The position numbers and the translations under genes are program-made. From assembly GCA_964016885.1 (NCBI GenBank), contig OZ024759.1:19592001-19656000 (forward strand): 64,000 nt of DNA, written 5' to 3'. A model generated the notes under the pieces. That model was not told where the DNA came from, did no database searches, and saw only the letters and a program-made list of their open reading frames with translations. Below are positions 14,453 to 62,051 of the stretch, one piece after another. Each line of letters opens with the position of its first letter. Position 1 is the stretch's first letter. The stretch comes from Eledone cirrhosa. Its lineage: Eukaryota.

Positions 14453-14699
14453 TTAAAGGGTTCCTATTTAAATTAAAATCTTCCAACATAACTTTATATA
14501 AAATACATGTACTAAGTTTCTCTCTCAGTAATAAAATAATTAATAAATTCTTTAAAATTTTTCATTGAGTAATTGAAGTGGGATGTATTTCATTATAAAT
14601 ACTATAACGAACTGGTTAAATAAATATACTTGTAAATATGTAAACAAATCAATAATATTGGTTGTTGAGCTAACTAATATATAGTATAAATATAGTACG

Positions 14700-15190
14700 G
14701 TTGTTCCCTGGTATTCGTGGGAGTTATGTTCCAAGAGAACCCGCGAACATGGAAAGGGAATGGCAAGGATTTTAGTGTCACAGAAGAATGGGGAAGGGGA
14801 GGACAAGACCGCAAAAGCATCCTTCGGACAATACCCAGCGATACTCGCTGCAACAGCCACCCCACCTCGCAGGGCTCTTTCCTCAGATAGGCTGCCGATG
14901 TTCCGATTTTGCGGAGGAGCTTGAATGTACAGGGTCCAAGAACACCTGAGGTCTCGACAGTGACCGATGTGGCCAGACGGTCCCCAGTATTTGTTTATCT
15001 CCCGTTCCTCTGCAAGGCGGGCTGTGGTACCGGGGTTTGTGGCCGAAGCGACTAAGTTGGAGGCGGAGAACATGTCGCAGCAGGTGGTGTCCCAGACGAG
15101 GGACCTACCTCCTCTGAATGGGAAGAGGGTGAGTCCATTGGGCCGCTTGCCATCTCCGCGGTCAAGTCCTGCTGGTTCCAGGTATACTAT
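14700..15190 (-). mobile_element. Degenerate GC-rich retroelement fragment (possibly the ORF1/gag-like region of an L1/Tx1 LINE)
   Basis: Clearly homologous to 46630-46890; frameshifted. The family assignment is a guess. Confidence 0.4.
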
Positions 15191-15240
15191 GCATTAGTTA
15201 ATTGACCAACCAATATTATTAATTAGTACAATGGTATAGG

Positions 15241-26230: not shown

Positions 26231-26425
26231 CTGTGTAGGGTTTTGGGTGTGGTGTGTGTGCTCTGACAAACGGTACAAACACGTATATATATATAATCCA
26301 GATATATATGATATATATATATATGTAGGAGGTGAGTTTTATTGTAGTACAAAACTATAAAACTATATGTTGATTTAAAACTGCACTATTTACAAGTGTA
26401 TTTTAACCTTCATATCATGTCTCCC

Positions 26426-26496
26426 TATTTTATCTGATGAAAACGCAAATGTTATTGCATGATGATATTTGTTTTTGAAATGCGCATAATAAAATA
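26426..26496 (+). ncRNA. Type I hammerhead ribozyme, minimal stem III, palindromic loop TGCGCA
   Basis: TATTTTAT-CTGATGA-aaacGCAAATGTTATT gcat GATGATATTTGTtttt-GAAA-TGCGCA-TA|ATAAAATA. Confidence 0.85.
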
Positions 26497-26578
26497 CATG
26501 GAACTCTTTTAACCATCTTTTGATCTTATGTATTATGATATATATATATATATATTTGGATTTATGTATATGCATGCA

Positions 26579-26633
<55 letters not shown>

Positions 26634-26811
26634 TTGCATATATATACATATATATATATATGCATGCATATATATATATATATATATAAATATATTATTT
26701 TGATCATGCCTTTATTTTTAATTTAATTTGCACCGTTTCCTCTCACCCCCTTTTTGCTATATGTCTCTCCACCACTCCCCTACACACCCTTTGAACTCTC
26801 TTTCCACACAC

Positions 26812-26850
26812 TTTTCACCTGAAGAAGGGCTTATGCCCGAAACGTCGTTC
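26812..26850 (+). ncRNA. Variant ultra-minimal hammerhead-like core (A-GGGC family)
   Basis: CTGAAGA-A-GGGC-TTAT-GCCC-GAAA-CG-TC; stem I only about 2 bp. Confidence 0.5.
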
Positions 26851-26933
26851 CCCACCACCACTCCACTCTCAAGAGCGTGAAACTAATAAACCTTTGTTCG
26901 TACTGTCTCTCTGTTTTGTTCCCGTTCAATTTT

Positions 26934-26992
<59 letters not shown>

Positions 26993-27124
26993 AGAAGTTA
27001 TATTTAATTTGTTGGAATTCCGACAAACATAAATGTTTATAACTGATATAGAGCACTCAACAGTGTACTGGAGTAAATATTCAAAGATATTAATAAATGG
27101 AAACCATATTTATGAAAACATATT

Positions 27125-27188
27125 TATTTTATTATATATATTTCAAGAGCAACCAACCCACCTTGGTGCGCTTTCATCAGATAAAATA
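27125..27188 (-). ncRNA. Type I hammerhead ribozyme (loop III TATATA)
   Basis: rc: TATTTTAT-CTGATGA-AAGCGCACCAA ggtggg TTGGTTGCTCTT-GAAA-TATATA-TA|ATAAAATA. Confidence 0.85.
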
Positions 27189-27315
27189 CAAAATTTATTT
27201 TATAAATAATGACATACCCATATATATATATTTACACTTTGTACTGCCTCTTCGCTTCATTTTTGTTTTCTGTACAAAGTGTAAATAATAGGTTCACGCT
27301 TGGGCGTAGGGTAGG

Positions 27316-27355
27316 GTGCGACGTTTCGGGCATAAGCCCTTCATCAGGAGAAAAG
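27316..27355 (-). ncRNA. Variant hammerhead-like core (A-GGGC family)
   Basis: rc: CTGATGA-A-GGGC-TTAT-GCCC-GAAA-CG-TC. Confidence 0.5.
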
Positions 27356-27436
27356 TGGGCAGGAAAAGAGTTCCGAGGGTGTGAAGGGGAGTGGTGGAAA
27401 GACATTAAAAAGTGGGGAGGAAAATACGATACATAC

Positions 27437-27563
27437 ATTGTTGTGCTCCATTATATCTTTGCGCCTGACAAGAGAGGCCGGAGGTCGGTTTTAGAATGGC
27501 TCTTCCACTATACTGTGTTGGCCATAACTGGACCCCTGCGAAATCTAAGGAGGTCACGCATAC
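27437..27563 (-). CDS. Candidate coding exon VCVTSLDFAGVQLWPTQYSGRAILKPTSGLSCQAQRYNGAQQ (phase 0-1)
   Basis: Unique sequence, CCCTTAACAG acceptor, T|GTATGT donor, open frame; 3' end identical to that of the exon at 35944-35989. Confidence 0.5.
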
Positions 27564-27636
27564 CTGTTAAGGGTTTTGAACATTAATATAAACTACATAG
27601 ACAGATAGATAGAAAGGTTTGTATGCGGATCCTTAA

Positions 27637-27857
27637 CCCTTTAGCATTTACATTAGTCTATATATACTATTGTATTTTCATGGTAAAGGCTTTACCTCAC
27701 GTAATTATTTCACATAATATCGAATCTATGGGATTTTGATATTATTTATTTTGAGATTAATACCTTAACATAAGTATGAGTGGCTGGTTCCGGGCGTTTT
27801 AAACAGAAAGAGGTGAGAGAATTCTGGCCGGATATGGCCAATTTAAATGCTAAAGGG
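27637..27857. mobile_element. piggyBac-like MITE with TTAA target-site duplication
   Basis: TTAA|CCCTTTAGCATTTA ... TAAATGCTAAAGGG|TTAA. Confidence 0.85.
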
Positions 27858-28247
27858 TTAAGTGTATGAACTTCAAGATAAACTAAATTGACAGATAGAT
27901 AGTAAGGTGTGTATGTGGATGCTTAACACCTGATGAAGTCGTATGGGGCACAAAGGAATTACGCAAACACAAACTGAGAAAATATAGAAAAAATATTTGA
28001 TTTGGAGATACATGGGTATCATTGCTGCTGCTGCGTGTGTGTGTGTATGTATATATATATATATAATAAAATGTGGAGAGGAGGCACACGAGTTAGAAAA
28101 AAGAGAGAGAGAGAGACAAAAAAAAAATGTTTTCTTCCTTATAATCGTCTCTGTCTCCCTATATATATATATATATATATAAAAGTAGCGAAACAAACGG
28201 TTATTAAACAATTTTCTAAATAAATTAAAAAATGATTAAATAATCAC

Positions 28248-28399
28248 CTGTTCAGATGCTGTTACCGACGGTTTCATCATTCCGAAAGATTGGAAATCCA
28301 ACGAATTTCCAATGGAAAGAAATGAATCTTCAGACAGCCCTATAAACAACTTGAATATTTCTACAAGTACATTGTACCTGTTGAAGTATCCATCCACTT
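28248..28399 (-). CDS. Candidate coding exon (E)VDGYFNRYNVLVEIFKLFIGLSEDSFLSIGNSLDFQSFGMMKPSVTASEQ (phase 1-0)
   Basis: Non-repetitive open frame, TATAG acceptor, CAG|GTGATT donor; phase-compatible with 29853-29928 and 27437-27563. One plus-strand frame is also open. Confidence 0.45.
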
Positions 28400-28447
<48 letters not shown>

Positions 28448-28494
28448 AAAGTTCTAATTAAATTGTTGGGATACAACAAGCAAATATTTTTATA

Positions 28495-28550
28495 AATGCG
28501 ACCATTTCTGTTGGAAGCTCCCGGGAGCTTCCAACAGAAATGGTCGCATT
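28495..28550. repeat. Perfect 56 bp palindrome at the 5' inversion junction of a hammerhead-bearing element
   Basis: AATGCGACCATTTCTGTTGGAAGCTCCC|GGGAGCTTCCAACAGAAATGGTCGCATT. Confidence 0.95.
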
Positions 28551-28595
28551 CGTTAAGGGTATGTCAATATTTATTTATAAAACTGATCTATATTA

Positions 28596-28660
28596 TATTT
28601 TATCTGATGAAAGCGCACCATAATTTGACTTGGTGTCCTTGAAATATGTATAATGAAATA
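28596..28660 (+). ncRNA. Type I hammerhead ribozyme (loop III TATGTA)
   Basis: TATTTTAT-CTGATGA-AAGCGCACCA taatttgact TGGTGTCCTT-GAAA-TATGTA-TA|ATGAAATA. Confidence 0.85.
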
Positions 28661-28843
28661 AATATGGTTTTATAAATATAGTTTCCATTTGTTAATATAT
28701 CGTATATATATATGGGGAGTGTGTGTGTAGTAAGATGTGATACCCTTCCCCTGTCGTATTTACACACAGTATGCAGAATACTGCTCTCCTCACTCCTTCA
28801 CTACCCAGGTACTTCTCCATCAGCCCATTGTTGATTATTATAC

Positions 28844-33950: not shown

Positions 33951-34239
33951 TAATGGTGGTAAGTAAGGTAGGGTGGTGTGATAGTGGTGTTGTCAAAGGT
34001 AGGCTTGGTTACGCATAAGTGCTTTCTCTTCTATCTCCTATAACTACCCAGACACAACACAATATTTGTATGTTTATATAAATATATATATTTATATATA
34101 TATATATATGCAGAAGTTATTTAATTTGTTGGGATTCAACAAGCTTAAAAGTTTTATAACTGATATAAAGCACTCAACAGTTACTGGAGTAAGTATTCAA
34201 TATATTAATAAATGGAAACTATATTTATAAAACCATAAT

Positions 34240-34304
34240 TATTTTATTATATATATTTCAAGGGCAACCAAGGCAATTTTGGTGCATTTTCATCAGATAG
34301 AATA
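34240..34304 (-). ncRNA. Type I hammerhead ribozyme (loop III TATATA)
   Basis: rc: TATTCTAT-CTGATGA-AAATGCACCAA aattgcc TTGGTTGCCCTT-GAAA-TATATA-TA|ATAAAATA. Confidence 0.8.
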
Positions 34305-34440
34305 CAAAATGTTTTATAAATGTTGACATACCCGTAGAAAAACAACCTTAACGGTTGCAAGTTCGCTGGATAGTCATATATATATATATTTAACACTTCA
34401 CTGCTCACAAGTGTTTTTTAAGCTTCATATCATGTCTCCC

Positions 34441-34511
34441 TATTTGATCTGATGAGAACGCAGATATCATCCCATGATGATATTTGTTTTTTAAATGCGC
34501 ATAATGAAATA
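34441..34511 (+). pseudogene. Degenerate hammerhead of the TGCGCA family (core GAAA mutated to TAAA)
   Basis: CTGATGA-gaacGCAGATATCATC ccat GATGATATTTGT-TAAA-TGCGCA-TA; paralogue of 26426-26496. Confidence 0.75.
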
Positions 34512-34751
34512 CTTGGAACTCTTTTAACCATCTTTTGACCTTATATTATATATATATGAGAGAGAGAAAGAAAGATTTATGGTACCCATTTACGTGTGTT
34601 GTATTGAGGCAAATAACTTTGTCTCCTCTGGGATTTTTACATAACCTTACCTATTGAGTACGCTGAGATGCAACCGGTACTAGCAGAGAAACTCTAGTCC
34701 AGTCAACTTATATATATATATATATTAATAAAATAGATGTTCTTTTGATCA

Positions 34752-34814
34752 ATTACATTTTATTATACATATTTCGGATGTACAACAGTACGTCCTCATC
34801 AGACAAAATATAAT
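34752..34814 (-). ncRNA. Type I hammerhead ribozyme with compact stem II
   Basis: rc: ATTATATTTTGT-CTGATGA-GGACGTAC tgtt GTACATCC-GAAA-TATGTA-TA|ATAAAATGTAAT (12 bp stem I including G-U pairs). Confidence 0.88.
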
Positions 34815-34992
34815 GATACGCGACATACCCTGAGATGCTAAATGGTTAAGATTTAATCAAGGTAGTATAATATTCCCCCCCCCCCACATATATATATATA
34901 TGGGGGGGGGGGGTAATATTAAATATCCACTTACAAGTATGAAAATAGCTGAATGTAAAGTAACTACTATATTACAGAATTACTTTATAAAT

Positions 34993-40394: not shown

Positions 40395-40470
<76 letters not shown>

Positions 40471-40508
40471 ATTAAATAAATGGAAAACTATATTTATAAA
40501 ACCATATT

Positions 40509-40574
40509 TATTTCATTATATATATTTCGGGGATATCATATTAACAATATGCTATGCCTTCATCAGACAAAATA
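40509..40574 (-). ncRNA. Type I hammerhead ribozyme
   Basis: Reverse complement of 40747-40812. Confidence 0.85.
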
Positions 40575-40746
40575 CAATATAAACAGTTTTATAGATAAAT
40601 ATATTCGACATACCGTAATAAACATCAACTTCATTTGAAGAGGTTCACTCTCGCAGAGAAGTTGATGTTTATTACGGTATGTCGTAATAAAGTTGATGTT
40701 TATTACGGTATGTCGAATATATTTATCTATAAAACTGTTTATATTG

Positions 40747-40812
40747 TATTTTGTCTGATGAAGGCATAGCATATTGTTAATATGATATCCCCGAAATATA
40801 TATAATGAAATA
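40747..40812 (+). ncRNA. Type I hammerhead ribozyme
   Basis: TATTTTGT-CTGATGA-aGGCATAGCATATT gtt AATATGATATCCcc-GAAA-TATATA-TA|ATGAAATA. Confidence 0.85.
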
Positions 40813-40940
40813 AATATGGTTTTATAAATATAGTTTTCCATTTATTTAATATTGTAAATATACTCCAAGTATTTGTCGAGTGCTTTTATATCAGTTATAA
40901 ATATTTACTAGTTGTAACCCAACAATTTTAAATATAACTT

Positions 40941-40975
<35 letters not shown>

Positions 40976-42744: not shown

Positions 42745-42812
42745 TTATTCATTCTGACGACTGAAGACAGACACAACATCTGTCTTCAAGAAACCACTGG
42801 TAAATGAAATAA
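42745..42812 (+). ncRNA. Type I hammerhead ribozyme, distinct family (CUGACGA)
   Basis: TTCATT-CTGACGA-cTGAAGACAGA cacaaca TCTGTCTTCAa-GAAA-CCACTGG-TA|AATGAA. Confidence 0.82.
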
Positions 42813-45205: not shown

Positions 45206-46232
45206 CGTAAATCCCTTCTGTCTAGGTTATCACGACTTGGCTAATGAAACGTCTACAAGAATCCGTTCGCTCGATCAAGGTCGTTGACCTGAGGCTAATC
45301 TATCACAACAGAACAGATAGCGGCTTTGTTGTTCGTATCAATATTTATCTTGAGCAGTAATCGATAGAGTGTCGGACAACATGCTTTGCACCATAGAATT
45401 ACATCCCTTTACGTTCTGAGTTCAAGTGTCGCCGAAGTGAGCTTCACCTTTCATCCTTACGGAGTCGATAGAATCAAGAATTGGCGTGTTCAAAGTACGA
45501 TTGTTTTTAATAATCAGTGCTGGTAGTCCTTGTACACGAGTGAACAGCCGCCTTATATAGGGCCCCGACTTTAATATGATGTATTTACTCTATACTATCC
45601 CAAGTATCGAGTACTCTTGAATAATGGCCCTACTAGTTTTAAACACTGGTATAACCCTGATCCATATATTGCATGGAAGTGTGTGTGTGTGTGTGTGTCC
45701 GGTTCAACCGGGTGTAACCACAGTAAGTAAGGTACTCAATACATAGCAGAGTATAAATGTTTCATATAGAAATGGCTTCTACAGGACTAGAACTGTTTCA
45801 TTCGAAGAGATATATAAATATATATATAGAGAGAGAGAGAATGTGTGCATATGTATGTAATTCACAATAAAAATCTAAATACATGTATGTATATATTCTT
45901 TAAACCCGCCAAAACCTCTACATGTGTTTTTTGGCAGACCTGACAAACGAAGCTACCTATCTGCACTGTACATCTGTACATCTGTATGCACAAGTATATT
46001 GTCTGTTGTACATAACACAGTATCGGTTTAACCCACTTGGCACCTCACCAATCTATTGTCAGCAACACTCGCATACACACACAGGCGCACTTTTGATAAG
46101 ACAACGATAGATGTTATGGCAAACGATGTTTGGGTATCGACCTTGGTATTATATTTATTTATTAAACAACAATAATAAAAAAGAAAAATAAACAAAAGAA
46201 GAGAAAAAAAAAGGAAAATCATTACCATCATC

Positions 46233-46626
46233 ATCATATGTCCACCTTTCCCCTTTCCCTGCTTGCAAGGATGGGACGGGTCCTTTTCAGCACAGCATCT
46301 TCCAATTCGTCACGGTCCTTCGTCATCCTCTCTGTGAGCTTCAGTGATCTGGGGTCTGCTCTCACCACCTTCGCCCATGTTTTTCGTGGTCTTAGACTGG
46401 GATTTCTTGTCATTTCTTTACCCATCGGTCATCCTCCATGCGTATCACATGTCCATACCAACGCAGTCTTCTCTCCCACACACTACAGTTTATCCCTCTT
46501 AAACACAGTTTCTCTCTCAACTCGTCTATGCTTGGTCGTTCACGCACATTGGCATTGCACATCCATCGGAGCATGCTTGCTTCATTTCTCTCCAGCCGTC
46601 GCATTTCCCCCGCAGTTGCTGCCCTT
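46233..46626 (-). mobile_element. RTE-clade LINE 3' fragment, fused to an unrelated retroelement piece (46630-46890)
   Basis: RRLERNEASMLRWMC...ELREKL...RRLRWYGHVIRM. Confidence 0.85.
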
Positions 46627-47027
46627 AATATCGAGAAAAAGAATGAAAACACCGGGGAGGGAGATGGCAAGAACTCTAGTGTCGCAGAAGAGAGGGGAGG
46701 ATGATTAGGCTTTGGGCCTAGGGCGTGGAGGCAGAAGGGCTGAGTCCCGCGGACAATGGCCAGCGACACCCGCTGCAACAGCCACCCAACATCGCGGGGC
46801 TCCTTCCTCAGACAGGCTGCCGACGTTCCGATTTTGCGGAGGATTCTCACCTGTACGGGGTCCAAGTATGCCTGAGGTCTCGACGGCGACCGGTGCAAAC
46901 TATAAAAACTATAGTTTCATCACCGGCTGCTTTTTTTTGTGAATATATCCCCAGGGAAAGAGGCTTGTGAAGTGATTTTTTTTAGAGTACCTTACTGGTG
47001 GGATCTACCCCTTAATGATTTTGTTTG

Positions 47028-47412: not shown

Positions 47413-47505
47413 TGTGTTAAGTATTTCCGTAGAAAAGGTAGAAAGAAGAGTGCTCTATGTGTAGTACAGAGCTATTTAATTACACAATAAACAACACAAT
47501 ATAAT

Positions 47506-47575
47506 TATTCCATTACCAAAGGTTTCAGCAAACAAGACAATCCTTACAGAAACGTCCGGCTCGTTCATCAGATTA
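47506..47575 (-). pseudogene. Degenerate hammerhead of the 42745 family
   Basis: rc: CTGATGA...GAAA-CCTTTGG-TA|ATGGAATA; downstream flank homologous to 42810-42870; stem I truncated by (TA)n. Confidence 0.55.
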
Positions 47576-47663: not shown

Positions 47664-48061
47664 GATCTGCTCAAGCTCCCTGTGTGTGTATATAAATATA
47701 TATATTATTATACTTGGGGAGGGTCATATTGTTGTAATAATATTGCCAGAAATAACAACAGAACACACTCACTGGCGTAGACATACAATACAACAGGAGG
47801 AACATAATAGTATCACTGATGATGTTGCAGATGTGCAACGAAAGAACTTTGTTAGACTATATATATGTGTTTATATCTGTATATTTGACCGTTGGTCAGT
47901 CAATGAATTAACTATGGAGATAGAAAAGATACAGAAGCGAAAGCCAACCAAACAGTGAGTGTGTTCTGATATTATTTCTGGCAATATTATTACAATATGA
48001 CCCTCCCCAAGTATAATAATATATCTATTTATATACACACACAGGGAGCTTGAGTTGATCA
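47664..48061. repeat. Inverted repeat (about 110 bp arms), same family as 61499-61972
   Basis: Arms at about 47664-47773 and 47953-48061, with GGGAGGGTCATATTG motif. Confidence 0.75.
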
Positions 48062-48303: not shown

Positions 48304-49215
48304 ATATATATATATATATATATATATCTTCACTCTACCAAAACCCAGTCAGCATATCTGCTATTAACTATGTGCACTCTGAACAGCTGATTGCAGCTGC
48401 ATAACTGCAATTCGGCAGATTCATTGAGTGAGCTAGACGCTGGTCGGAGAACGTTGACTTAATACCAACGATCTTCGTTAAATTTATTATATATTTATAT
48501 AAACGGAAAAAATGAAACGAAATTTCATTTCTCGCTCTTAGTACGGCTGTTACTTAAATATAAGTATGTATACGCACATGGTGGCTGCCAACTCGTTTTC
48601 GAGTACGGCCACTACTTTATATCCATGTAGGAGAACCCCTACGGATGCGCTGAACGAGTGTGACTTTTTAGTCCAGCCAGCGATTTGAAAACTCTGGTAC
48701 AAACACTACACTTTTGACAATTATTGACACATAGTGCTGGGCCCATGGTACCATCTGACGACAAGTGCAGAGAGATCTCCAGATATAAAGCAATGCCTGT
48801 GCCGTGAAGCTTTTATAGTGAGCAAAGGCACTGCACAAAGCCAGTCCCACTCTCTTAAACAAGATGATATGTACCAAAAAGAAGAACAAGTCAACATCAT
48901 TGGATACCATCAGGGTTGCAGGTGTTATATCAGAGTTTTCCTTCTCCTAGAATTCTGCCTTGACAAAGGCTAAGGGGTCATCTCTCCCGGTGATTTTGGA
49001 TGGCCATTGACTCTTAAGAGCTCCTTTGCCCTTTGACAGGTTTTGTTTTTAGTCCTGCAGGATGTCCAAAGTCACCCTCCTCACCAAGAAACCTTGGTGG
49101 GGTTGCCAGTTTAGTCGCCAACGACCCGACCATGAGACAGGTTGTACTGGGATACATGTTACCAGTAGCACCAACTGGTGACCTGACATACATATATGTA
49201 TACAGACGTACAGTA

Positions 49216-49286
<71 letters not shown>

Positions 49287-49688
49287 CATGCACACATATA
49301 TATATGTACGTATTGATTCGCCGAACATTTATTATAATGCTCGGTGTGTTTGTAAACAAACATCCCGAATTAAGCCGTACAGTGTCAGAAATGAAATTTC
49401 GTTTCATTTTTTCTGTTTATCGTTTTCGGTACCCCGGCCGATTAACTCACTCGATATGCAAATTAGGCTGCTCAACCGTTAATATTCATATATTCCCAAT
49501 TAAACGTTTGGGGTGCTAACTATATTGTATTGTGTGGATAATTGGCTGTATTATTTTATGAGACATATTAAATATAAACCCCCCATTCCCAAGCGTTAAC
49601 CTAATAGCTAACACTTTTCGTAATTGTACTCCTTGTTGTTATTTACTTTTCCTATATAAATATATATATATAGATATAATATAGAAAT

Positions 49689-49739
49689 GGCTTCTACAGG
49701 ACTAGAACTGTTTCATTCGGGAGAAATCATCAGGAAGCC
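49689..49739 (-). ncRNA. Type I hammerhead ribozyme with a true 4 bp stem III
   Basis: rc: GGCTTC-CTGATGA-tTTC tccc GAAt-GAAA-CAG ttctagtc CTG-TA|GAAGCC. Confidence 0.85.
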
Positions 49740-49884
49740 CTGATATGTATGTATGTATATATATATATATATATATATATACAGAGAGAGAGAGAGAGAT
49801 CTGGAGTTGCGTCGGGGGTAACCACAGTAAAGAAAGTACTCAATACATATGTAGAGTGACGGCAAAGGTTTATATAGAAAAGAA

Positions 49885-49932
49885 GGCTTCTACAAGACTA
49901 GAACTGTTTCATTCGTATGAAATCATCAGGAA
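49885..49932 (-). ncRNA. Second hammerhead of the same family, stem I 5'-truncated
   Basis: rc: TTC-CTGATGA-tTTC atac GAAt-GAAA-CAG ttctagtc TTG-TA|GAA; core-less relatives at 45772-45808 and 53483-53525. Confidence 0.7.
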
Positions 49933-49940
49933 TGTATATA

Positions 49941-51746: not shown

Positions 51747-51991
51747 TATGTATATATATATGTGTGTGTGTGTATAGGTATGTGTATATATGAATATATA
51801 TATATATATATATAACAAAGAAAGTGTGGTAAGATACTAGGTGGACCATAACGTACCAGAGTACTAGATACTTGGGGTTGTAGAGTGGGTAACAGGAAAA
51901 TAGTCAGGACCCCGACGGTAGAGCTTCCAACAGTAATGGTTGCATTGTTTAAGGATATGTCAATATTTATTTATAAAACTGCTCTATATTA

Positions 51992-52056
51992 TATTTTATC
52001 TGATGAAAGCACACCATAATTTAACTTGGTGTCCTTGAAATATGTATAATGAAATA
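51992..52056 (+). ncRNA. Type I hammerhead ribozyme (loop III TATGTA)
   Basis: TATTTTAT-CTGATGA-AAGCACACCA taatttaact TGGTGTCCTT-GAAA-TATGTA-TA|ATGAAATA. Confidence 0.85.
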
Positions 52057-52184
52057 AATATGGTTTTATAAATATAGTTTCCATTTGTTAATATATCGTA
52101 TTTTTACTCCAATAATTTGTTGAGTGCTTTATATCAGTTATAAAAATATTTGCTTGTTGTATCCCAACAATTTAAATAGAACTT

Positions 52185-52241
<57 letters not shown>

Positions 52242-53267: not shown

Positions 53268-53345
53268 TATTTTGCCTGAGGAGGAAATGTTTTGCTTCAG
53301 GTTTTACATAAAACCTTACATCTTCGTAATATATATAATGAAATA
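53268..53345 (+). pseudogene. Degenerate hammerhead (CUGAGGA; GAAA changed to GTAA)
   Basis: TATTTTGC-CTGAGGA-GGAAATGT...ACATCTTC-GTAA-TATATA-TA|ATGAAATA. Confidence 0.65.
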
Positions 53346-53653
53346 AATTGAGATGATATAAAGTATATATCTTTCGTTAGCCTTACGGGGTCGATAAAAT
53401 AAAGTACCAGTGATGCACTGGGGTAATCGCTGGCCTTGTGCAAAAAGTAGAAAAACTATTATTATTATTATTAAGATATATAAGGGCTTCCCGAATGAAA
53501 CAGTTCTAGTCCTGTAGAAGCCATTTCTATATTAAATATTTATACTCTGCTATGTATTGGGTACCTTATTTACTGAGGTTACCCCCGATTGAATCCGGGA
53601 TATATATATATATATATATATCACTTGTCTGAGACTGGAATTTGGAATCTCAC

Positions 53654-55284: not shown

Positions 55285-55345
<61 letters not shown>

Positions 55346-55474
55346 GGAAAGTTATATTTAAATTGTTGGGTTACAACTAGTAAATATTTATAACTGATAT
55401 AAAAGCACTCAACAAGTATTTGGAGTATATTTACGATATTAAATAAATGGAAACTATATTTATAAAACCATATT

Positions 55475-55540
55475 TATTTCATTATATATATTTCAGGGAT
55501 ATCATATTAACAATATGTTATGCCTTCTTCAGACAAAATA
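55475..55540 (-). ncRNA. Type I hammerhead ribozyme (CUGAAGA)
   Basis: Reverse complement of 55660-55725. Confidence 0.85.
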
Positions 55541-55659
55541 CAATATAGACAGTTTTATAGATAAATAGATTTGACATACCGTTCAACATCGACTTGTATT
55601 TGAAAAAGTTGATTTGAACGGTATGTCAAATCTATTTATCTATAAAACTGTCTATATTG

Positions 55660-55725
55660 TATTTTGTCTGAAGAAGGCATAACATATTGTTAATATGATA
55701 TCCCTGAAATATATATAATGAAATA
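55660..55725 (+). ncRNA. Type I hammerhead ribozyme (CUGAAGA)
   Basis: TATTTTGT-CTGAAGA-AGGCATAACATATT gtt AATATGATATCCCT-GAAA-TATATA-TA|ATGAAATA. Confidence 0.85.
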
Positions 55726-55766
55726 AATATGGTTTTATAAATATAGTTTCCATTTATTTAATATCG

Positions 55767-55798
<32 letters not shown>

Positions 55799-61498: not shown

Positions 61499-61506
<8 letters not shown>

Positions 61507-61972
61507 ATACTTTGGGAGGGTCATGTTGCCAATAAGAAACACACGCACCAGTTGCTTTCACTTCAATTTATTATATATTTATAAATTTCTGGTTGGTTGG
61601 TTGGTCCCACAACCAGATAGTTGTTTATATATAGTCATAGTCCTTTCGTCACACACTCTGTGACCTCTTCAGTGACTGGGGATTCCTTTCTTTGTTTCTG
61701 TGCCTCTCCTTTGTTCTGTCCTACGCCAGAGAAACAAAATGGCGTAGGACAGAACAAAGGAGAGGCACAGAAACAAAGAAAGTAATCCCCAGTCACTGAA
61801 GAGGTCAGAGTGTGTGACGAAAGAACTATGACTATATATAAACTATCTGGTTGTGGGACCAACCAACCAACCAGAAATTTATAAATTTATAAATATATAA
61901 TAAATTGAAGTGAAAGCAACTGGTGCGTGTGTTTCTTATTGGCAACATGACCCTCCCAAAGTATAACAATAT
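61499..61972. repeat. About 230 bp near-perfect inverted repeat inserted in (TA)n
   Basis: Arms 61499-61728 and 61740-61972, 11 nt spacer. Confidence 0.92.
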
Positions 61973-62051
61973 CGGTTTCAACACACGATTTCAGATAAAG
62001 AATCTTGCTAAACAAATTCAGAAACGAAATATATATATATATATCTCATTA

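Follow-up and report, generated by a model that had tools for sequence, protein, structure and literature searches.

The palindromic helix III of dispersed hammerhead motifs in Eledone cirrhosa DNA does not track motif families

Could the palindromic loop III of a small hammerhead ribozyme serve as a recognition code, by which each family of repeats activates only its own kind? The question is raised by a 64,000-nt stretch of DNA from Eledone cirrhosa (GenBank assembly GCA_964016885.1, contig OZ024759.1, positions 19,592,001 to 19,656,000 of the forward strand), hereafter called the window. A preliminary description of it listed hammerhead-like sites, among them those between positions 26,426 and 28,660, whose loop III (TATATA, TGCGCA, TATGTA or CCACTGG) was said to stay self-complementary while switching from family to family. 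We find that the palindromy of helix III is real and enriched over background, and that the loop does not track families. We consider it probable that these type I motifs derive from end-pieces of Penelope-like elements, that the palindrome serves pairing with an identical partner copy, and that the loop changes by drift and carries no code.

A type I hammerhead motif is present at all 12 of the sites listed, each with the loop that had been reported for it. The layout is CUGANGA, then GAAA, helix III and UH, together with helices I and II, and each coordinate marks one end of a motif. Five of the 12 lie on the minus strand (27125, 34240, 34752, 40509 and 55475), which had gone unstated, and 40509/40747 and 55475/55660 are inverted duplicates, so that the 12 sites represent 10 insertions. 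The window is animal-like and AT-rich (40% GC), with many (TA)n and other simple repeats. A strict descriptor (intact core, at least five helix I pairs, helix II of -4 kcal/mol or better) gave 12 hits in it; 200 block-wise dinucleotide shuffles averaged 0.01 hits and never gave more than one. Among eight related rows of family A, pairing held in 92.9% of cells versus 33-59% in slid controls, and three of nine helix II pairs showed two-sided changes, a count no better than in shuffles (346 of 500). The best 150 of 262 rows of an Rfam scan included no hammerhead family; these rows were microRNA-like chance matches on microsatellites or hairpins, all under gathering scores. By hand we tabulated 23 hammerhead-like loci and sorted them into nine families, A to I (labels of this analysis). 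The core is intact in 21 of them and broken at 34449 (TAAA) and 53276 (GTAA). The loci that bear most directly on the question are these:

26426-26496, plus strand: family B motif; core 26434-26488, helix III ATGCGCAT at 26480-26487, predicted cut after 26488.
27125-27188, minus strand: family A motif; core 27180-27133, helix III ATATATAT at 27141-27134.
28596-28660, plus strand: family A motif; helix III ATATGTAT at 28644-28651.
About 28445-28710: insertion unit of the motif at 28596-28660, with an inverted tail piece, a central hairpin and (TA)n flanks.
34240-34304, minus strand: family A motif; helix III ATATATAT at 34256-34249, one helix I mismatch.
34441-34511, plus strand: family B copy with a broken core (TAAA); helix III ATGCGCAT at 34495-34502.
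34752-34814, minus strand: family D motif; helix III ATATGTAT at 34772-34765, 12-bp helix I, G10.1-C11.1.
40460-40950: family A inverted pair; cores 40566 (minus) and 40755 (plus), both ATATATAT, tail of about 90 nt on the plus arm only, (TA)n on both sides.
42745-42812, plus strand: family E motif; helix III ACCACTGGT at 42793-42801.
47505-47575, minus strand: family E relative, absent from the preliminary description; helix III ACCTTTGGT, 5' arm of helix I degraded.
51920-52190, plus strand: family A copy with tail; helix III ATATGTAT at 52040-52047, ending in (TA)n.
53268-53345, plus strand: degenerate family I motif (GTAA core); helix III ATATATAT.
55345-55770: family A inverted pair; cores 55532 (minus) and 55668 (plus), both ATATATAT, tail on the minus arm only, (TA)n on both sides.

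With G-U pairs allowed, helix III is fully self-complementary at 15 of the 23 loci, has one central mismatch at two and has two to four mismatches at six; the list of loops had omitted such exceptions. All 15 copies of families A, B, C, D and I self-pair in full. As a background, 18 of 180 GAAA-N6-T-H sites in the window are palindromic, 10 of these being hammerhead motifs, which leaves 8 of 170. A second null came from other collections, in which a looser family A pattern matched 117 metagenome and 50 viral loci (124 distinct matches). Five of the 124 are palindromic, none is a convincing hammerhead, and the three that pass the fold filter include no palindrome; the strict family A pattern had no match in the metagenome contigs. 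Palindromy is thus enriched over a background of 4-5%, and all four families with an 8-nt helix III self-pair fully. In this respect the self-complementarity reported earlier is borne out, with the exception of CCACTGG, since ACCACTGGT has a central C-C mismatch and is no full palindrome. Copy 47571, a relative of the 42745 motif (78% identity over 97 nt), reads ACCTTTGGT and would have three mismatches in a dimer. In family F, AGGACT is predicted to form tandem G-A pairs in a dimer (-1.7 kcal/mol) and AGAACT an A-A mismatch (+2.4 kcal/mol). Families F and H and copy 47571 are not full palindromes, and we do not assign them to the dimer class.

The loop sequence, by contrast with the claim that it switches between families, varies within one family and recurs in others. 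Family A carries both TATATA and TATGTA: the TATGTA copies 28604 and 52000 align throughout with the TATATA copies 40755 and 55668 at 81-84% identity, while those two share no more than 71-73% identity with two further TATATA copies, 27180 and 34296. TATGTA recurs in family D (copy 34802, 55-60% identical to family A) and TATATA in the degenerate family I, and both CCACTGG and CCTTTGG are found in family E. The family A repeat was also seen in sequencing runs of the probable species of the window and of several other organisms. Run X12 shows an A-to-G change at loop position 4 (34252 T>C), carried by 1314 of 3438 reads and by 14210 of 20607, with about 224 start places among them, although X12 is a restriction-site-associated DNA (RAD) library with reads ending at restriction-like sites, in which shares of reads are not shares of copies. 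The same change occurs in 70 contigs of X1 and four of X5 (a second organism). At the core position broken in the family B copy at 34441, where the window reads TAAA, most X12 reads have G (939 of 953 and 444 of 460). As the loop both varies within a family and is common to different families, drift is likely and a family-specific code is not.

Two further observations were made in these reads. Position 34494 is the end of 1125 of 2138 X12 molecules. Since other such ends lie at AATT, loop position 2 may be T in some family B-like copies, which would make a further loop variant. In addition, reads and contigs of X1, X12 and X5 join 34259-34261 to 34786-34789, linking the 3' side of A to the 5' side of D across roughly 20 other letters, which suggests that additional families lie between A and D.

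How far the loops could discriminate was estimated from nearest-neighbour energies, which do not include tertiary contacts or magnesium. Helix III is predicted at -3.2 kcal/mol for the UAUAUA homodimer, -2.2 for the UAUGUA homodimer and -3.2 for their heterodimer. UGCGCA pairs with itself at -10.5 kcal/mol, with UAUGUA at -0.1 (one mismatch) and with UAUAUA only at +5.3. CCACUGG with CCUUUGG comes to -7.0 kcal/mol, compared with -8.2 and -5.1 for the homodimers, and no cross-family pairing is predicted for loops of unequal length. The helix I arms are exchangeable among A, B and D, with 8 of 8 pairs in every combination. Relative to two open monomers, whole dimers within A and D are predicted at -5.8 to -8.4 kcal/mol when homotypic and -4.9 to -8.6 when heterotypic, whereas family B reaches -15.9 with itself, about 0 with UAUAUA copies of A and -4.6 with UAUGUA copies. 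Most of the listed copies are thus predicted to form one compatible pairing group, and only TGCGCA with TATATA is predicted to be incompatible. In the energy model the expectation of family-specific pairing holds for those two loops and fails for A, D and I, whose loops are the same or compatible, and the corollary of one loop per family without cross-pairing does not survive.

The same estimates bear on whether a partner would be needed. A lone A, B or D motif could close only two A-U pairs around four bases, and closing helix III is predicted to cost 2.0-2.9 kcal/mol, while two copies would share an 8-bp helix III that is 12-20 kcal/mol better than two active monomers. For families E and G, closure in the monomer is instead predicted to gain 2.5 and 1.7 kcal/mol, with CCACTGG closing a 3-bp helix III by itself, and the 9-nt loops are therefore no evidence for obligatory dimers. 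D 34802 and A 34296 are the one compatible cross-family pair on a single strand, but a cis heterodimer of the two in the native 651 nt found no support: it is predicted at -112.4 kcal/mol, the two active monomers at -115.9 and the unconstrained fold at -141.5. For two family H copies the dimer came to -49.2 versus -42.1 kcal/mol, yet it lay above the unconstrained fold at -60.2.

That minimal hammerheads can cleave as dimers paired through palindromic loops, as the preliminary description stated, is published (PMC4209133, PMC6765202 and PMC6466107). For Penelope hammerheads, a palindrome spanning positions 15.2-16.2 and loop 3 is a listed feature, single motifs gave no cleavage and dimers cleaved, albeit weakly (PMC4209133). 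On this basis we propose that the transcript of an intact tandem element would hold two identical terminal repeats, and that the partner of each motif would be the other terminal repeat of the same element, identical by descent. A single motif would form no stable helix III alone; two copies would exchange helix I arms, build a joint 8-bp helix III and cleave after UA, since the connectivity of a double hammerhead implies that helices III and I are both formed between copies. With an identical partner, the sole demand on the loop would be self-complementarity. The inner four bases could then drift by paired transitions through G-U states, from UAUAUA to UAUGUA and on to UGCGCA, and the incompatibility between distant families would be a by-product. 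The inner change from AUAU to GCGC keeps two pairs that are impossible in a hairpin, and these complementary inner pairs are the best local sign in the sequence pointing to pairing between copies. As same-family neighbours are inverted and not tandem, except in family H, the copies of the window itself are likely inactive as dimers. For a Poseidon element, cleavage by the hammerhead required the element's protein, insertion in vitro did not depend on cleavage, and RNA ends at the cut were not observed (PMC11167929).

The origin of the repeats is suggested by their layout. Copies are 150-500 nt long and flanked by (TA)n, with inverted pairs at 40460-40950, 55345-55770 and 61500-61990. In the family A pairs, the shorter arm ends about 50 nt past its predicted cut, the longer one extends a further 90 nt or so, and the same junctions appear in reads. 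Truncation, an adjacent inverted copy and a one-sided tail are combined at 40460-40950, 55345-55770 and 28445-28710, and Penelope-like elements are described as having truncated copies, adjacent inverted copies, one-sided tails and (TA)n targets (PMC8557442). The repeats are therefore likely to be truncated end-pieces of several Penelope-like element families in (TA)n, judging from sequence layout. At about 90 nt (40855-40945, 52100-52190 and 55345-55435), the one-sided family A tail exceeds the 30-40 nt described (PMC8557442). The window has no direct tandem of the same family on one strand for A, B, D or E; unlike retrozymes, which consist of head-to-tail repeats of 150-450 bp that each contain a hammerhead, its same-family neighbours are inverted, with one direct pair, in family H.

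Several points weigh against this account. No reverse transcriptase (RT) or GIY-YIG domain was hit by Pfam in 145 of 201 selected frames of the window, so that the Penelope origin is argued from layout and motif type. Overall identity among A, B and D (54-60%) is near the AT-rich background of 47-58%, making for weak homology. The minimum-energy fold is a hammerhead for some copies only, and the 10.1-11.1 pair is A-U in families A and B, not the usual G-C. Covariation of the inner pairs is a single comparison, A/D with B. The incompatibility of B with A is large in the model, at 8-16 kcal/mol, as the preliminary description had predicted. Beyond the bias of the RAD library, 40 of 200 read differences were inspected, and related families may have added reads.

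The alternative that fares best, though we regard it as unlikely, is that monomers cleave with the aid of tertiary contacts or an element protein, the palindrome being a relic or a side effect of mutation in AT-rich or (TA)n DNA. Families E, G and H are predicted to close a helix III of 3-4 bp alone, with the active fold 1.7-2.5 kcal/mol better than the open one for E and G, and F, H and copy 47571 lack a full palindrome. Moreover, the long intramolecular helix I of family A would need to be exchanged in a dimer. Families A, B and D also have in common an unpaired C after three basal helix II pairs, though the pairs themselves differ, and this C is a candidate tertiary contact or protein site; the dependence of the Poseidon hammerhead on added protein (PMC11167929) would fit as well. 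A mutational side effect would not readily explain why GCGC, which is not TA-like, keeps both of the inner pairs that a hairpin cannot form, or why full self-pairing extends to all four families with an 8-nt helix III at a background of about 5%. Furthermore, the published monomers of this class were inactive (PMC4209133).

It is harder still to credit a selected dimerisation code, in which loops diverge so that each family activates its own kind and co-expressed elements do not cleave one another. The model does set TGCGCA apart from TATATA, with the whole dimer at 0.0 kcal/mol versus -8.4 and -15.9 for like with like, and on the exchangeable helix I of A, B and D loop III would be the sole discriminating part; loops of different length are predicted to be insulated as well, and the molecule ends at 34494 hint at a further variant in family B-like copies. 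But a code should not place two loops within A, nor one loop in both A and D and another in both A and I. Heterodimers of A and D are predicted to match homodimers in stability, TATGTA can pair with TGCGCA at the price of one mismatch, and the two family E loops pair with each other better than one of them does with itself (-7.0 versus -5.1 kcal/mol). Nor would a code be needed, because a partner in cis is self by construction, and with a Poseidon element cleavage depended on the element's protein, while insertion in vitro did not need cleavage (PMC11167929).

About equally improbable, in our judgement, is a looser version, in which loop III marks coarse compatibility groups: the AU-rich loops of A, D and I would cross-activate, the TGCGCA, 9-nt and 4-nt loops would be insulated, and selection would keep co-active lineages apart. 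If this were true, chimeric RNAs could be excised from read-through transcripts wherever compatible families are nested in one (TA)n cluster, as for example D 34802 with A 34296, 516 nt from cut to cut. Finally, the preliminary description pointed out that the TATATA loop resembles the (TA)n target site, but we find it very improbable that the loop was copied from this target or offers it a site for primer pairing: TATATA is the commonest loop and the inspected copies are (TA)n-flanked, but the inspected family A junctions (34210, 34202 and about 34152) lie downstream of the cut at 34248, the family joining (TA)n some 45-50 or 140 nt past the cut and not at the loop, the one GAAA(TA)5+ site of the window does not follow a hammerhead core, families with GC-rich loops are found among (TA)n too, and the Poseidon enzyme starts in vitro at an RNA site without homology to the cut DNA (PMC11167929).

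The remaining motifs of the window are the following:

26816-26848, plus strand: family C minimal hammerhead; A-CG-T, helix I of about 2 bp, relatives at 27347 (minus) and 40174 (minus).
27318-27350, minus strand: family C minimal hammerhead, 167 nt upstream of a family A motif on the same strand.
28258-28338, minus strand: family G motif, absent from the preliminary description; core 28333-28263, helix III ACCGTCGGT with one central mismatch.
49680-49935, minus strand: family H direct pair, 196 nt apart; cores 49929 and 49733, 4-bp helix III, 8-nt loop.
61500-61990: family F inverted pair; cores 61672 (minus) and 61796 (plus), helix III AGGACT and AGAACT, non-palindromic, relative at 47816 (plus).

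The family G motif, which lies inside the interval first described, has a 51-nt helix II. In family H, the 8-nt loop has a central CUAG palindrome, fragments of the family lie at 45709-45804 and 53489-53588, and its direct pair is the nearest thing to a retrozyme-like tandem in the window. Motifs of five families fall within 2.3 kb at 26400-28720 and of three within 0.75 kb at 34100-34860, a clustering that fits nested insertion into (TA)n. A further repeat, dispersed and some 85 nt long, at 53380-53470 and more than 15 other places (e.g., 21851, 28952 and 35070), is probably a short interspersed element. On the 145 frames, Pfam gave sub-threshold C2H2 and DUF6451 hits only, with a C2H2 zinc finger match below the cut-off at 48642-48812 on the minus strand (E 0.00017). 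Two minus-strand open frames, 46413-46916 and 14555-15193, which look like ends of proteins of retrotransposons without long terminal repeats (LTRs), had no Pfam hit.

Among known systems, the closest are the Penelope variants of Drosophila willistoni, Aedes aegypti and Saccoglossus (Cervera and de la Pena 2014, PMC4209133), which have the same type I core and a palindromic helix III. There too, several families per genome carry different palindromes, mostly in single dispersed copies, with opposite-strand pairs 100-700 bp apart, a long helix II, and U-rich 5' and AU-rich 3' flanks. The Fig. S3 consensus of that paper reads GAAAN, palindrome, NU and H; two palindromes per genome are given there for A. 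aegypti (CGCG and GGCC) and Schistosoma mansoni (GC and CG), and the A-U-AGCU-A-U helix of D. willistoni is of the same size as those described here. A G10.1-C11.1 pair with an extra base after A9 is frequent in those variants but not universal, some rows of Fig. S3 lacking the extra base (PMC4209133). In the window, family C has both, D has the G-C pair without the extra base, and most of family A, as well as family B, has A10.1-U11.1 without it. Unlike the published variants, the window has this A10.1-U11.1 pair in A and B, a longer helix I (at least 8 pairs) and no linked RT that we could find, and families with UAUAUA, UAUGUA or UGCGCA are absent from the Fig. S3 rows compared (PMC4209133).

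The small Penelope hammerheads of later reviews likewise have a short palindromic stem III loop, dimer cleavage and a tandem source of the partner (PMC6765202, PMC6466107), and a dimer-type palindromic helix III is restated in PMC6765202, PMC6466107, PMC7761336 and PMC7229834. Avocado sunblotch viroid, newt satellite 2 and axolotl retrozymes (PMC6466107, PMC7229834) similarly have an unstable helix III that is rescued by two palindromic loops; unlike the dispersed or inverted motifs of the window, these form tandem arrays or viroid multimers and have canonical loop-loop contacts. Non-LTR retrozymes share with the window type I motifs in short, non-coding, AT-rich repeats, and have been proposed to derive from Penelope terminal repeats (PMC7229834; bioRxiv 10.64898/2026.07.22.740005). 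Retrozymes are defined by head-to-tail arrays, whereas here only family H has a direct pair (196 nt).

Variation of the palindrome between families of one genome is thus already published (PMC4209133), and no claim of heterodimer specificity or of a loop code was found in the literature searched, which did not cover Lunse 2017 or Arkhipova 2017. A selected code, if true, would amount to self-recognition between retroelement RNAs, and trans pairing in cells would then matter; the present data point away from it. What the window adds is a few families to a described class. Its natural series of loops, UAUAUA, UAUGUA and UGCGCA, on an exchangeable helix I may be particularly handy for loop-swap tests of the dimer model.

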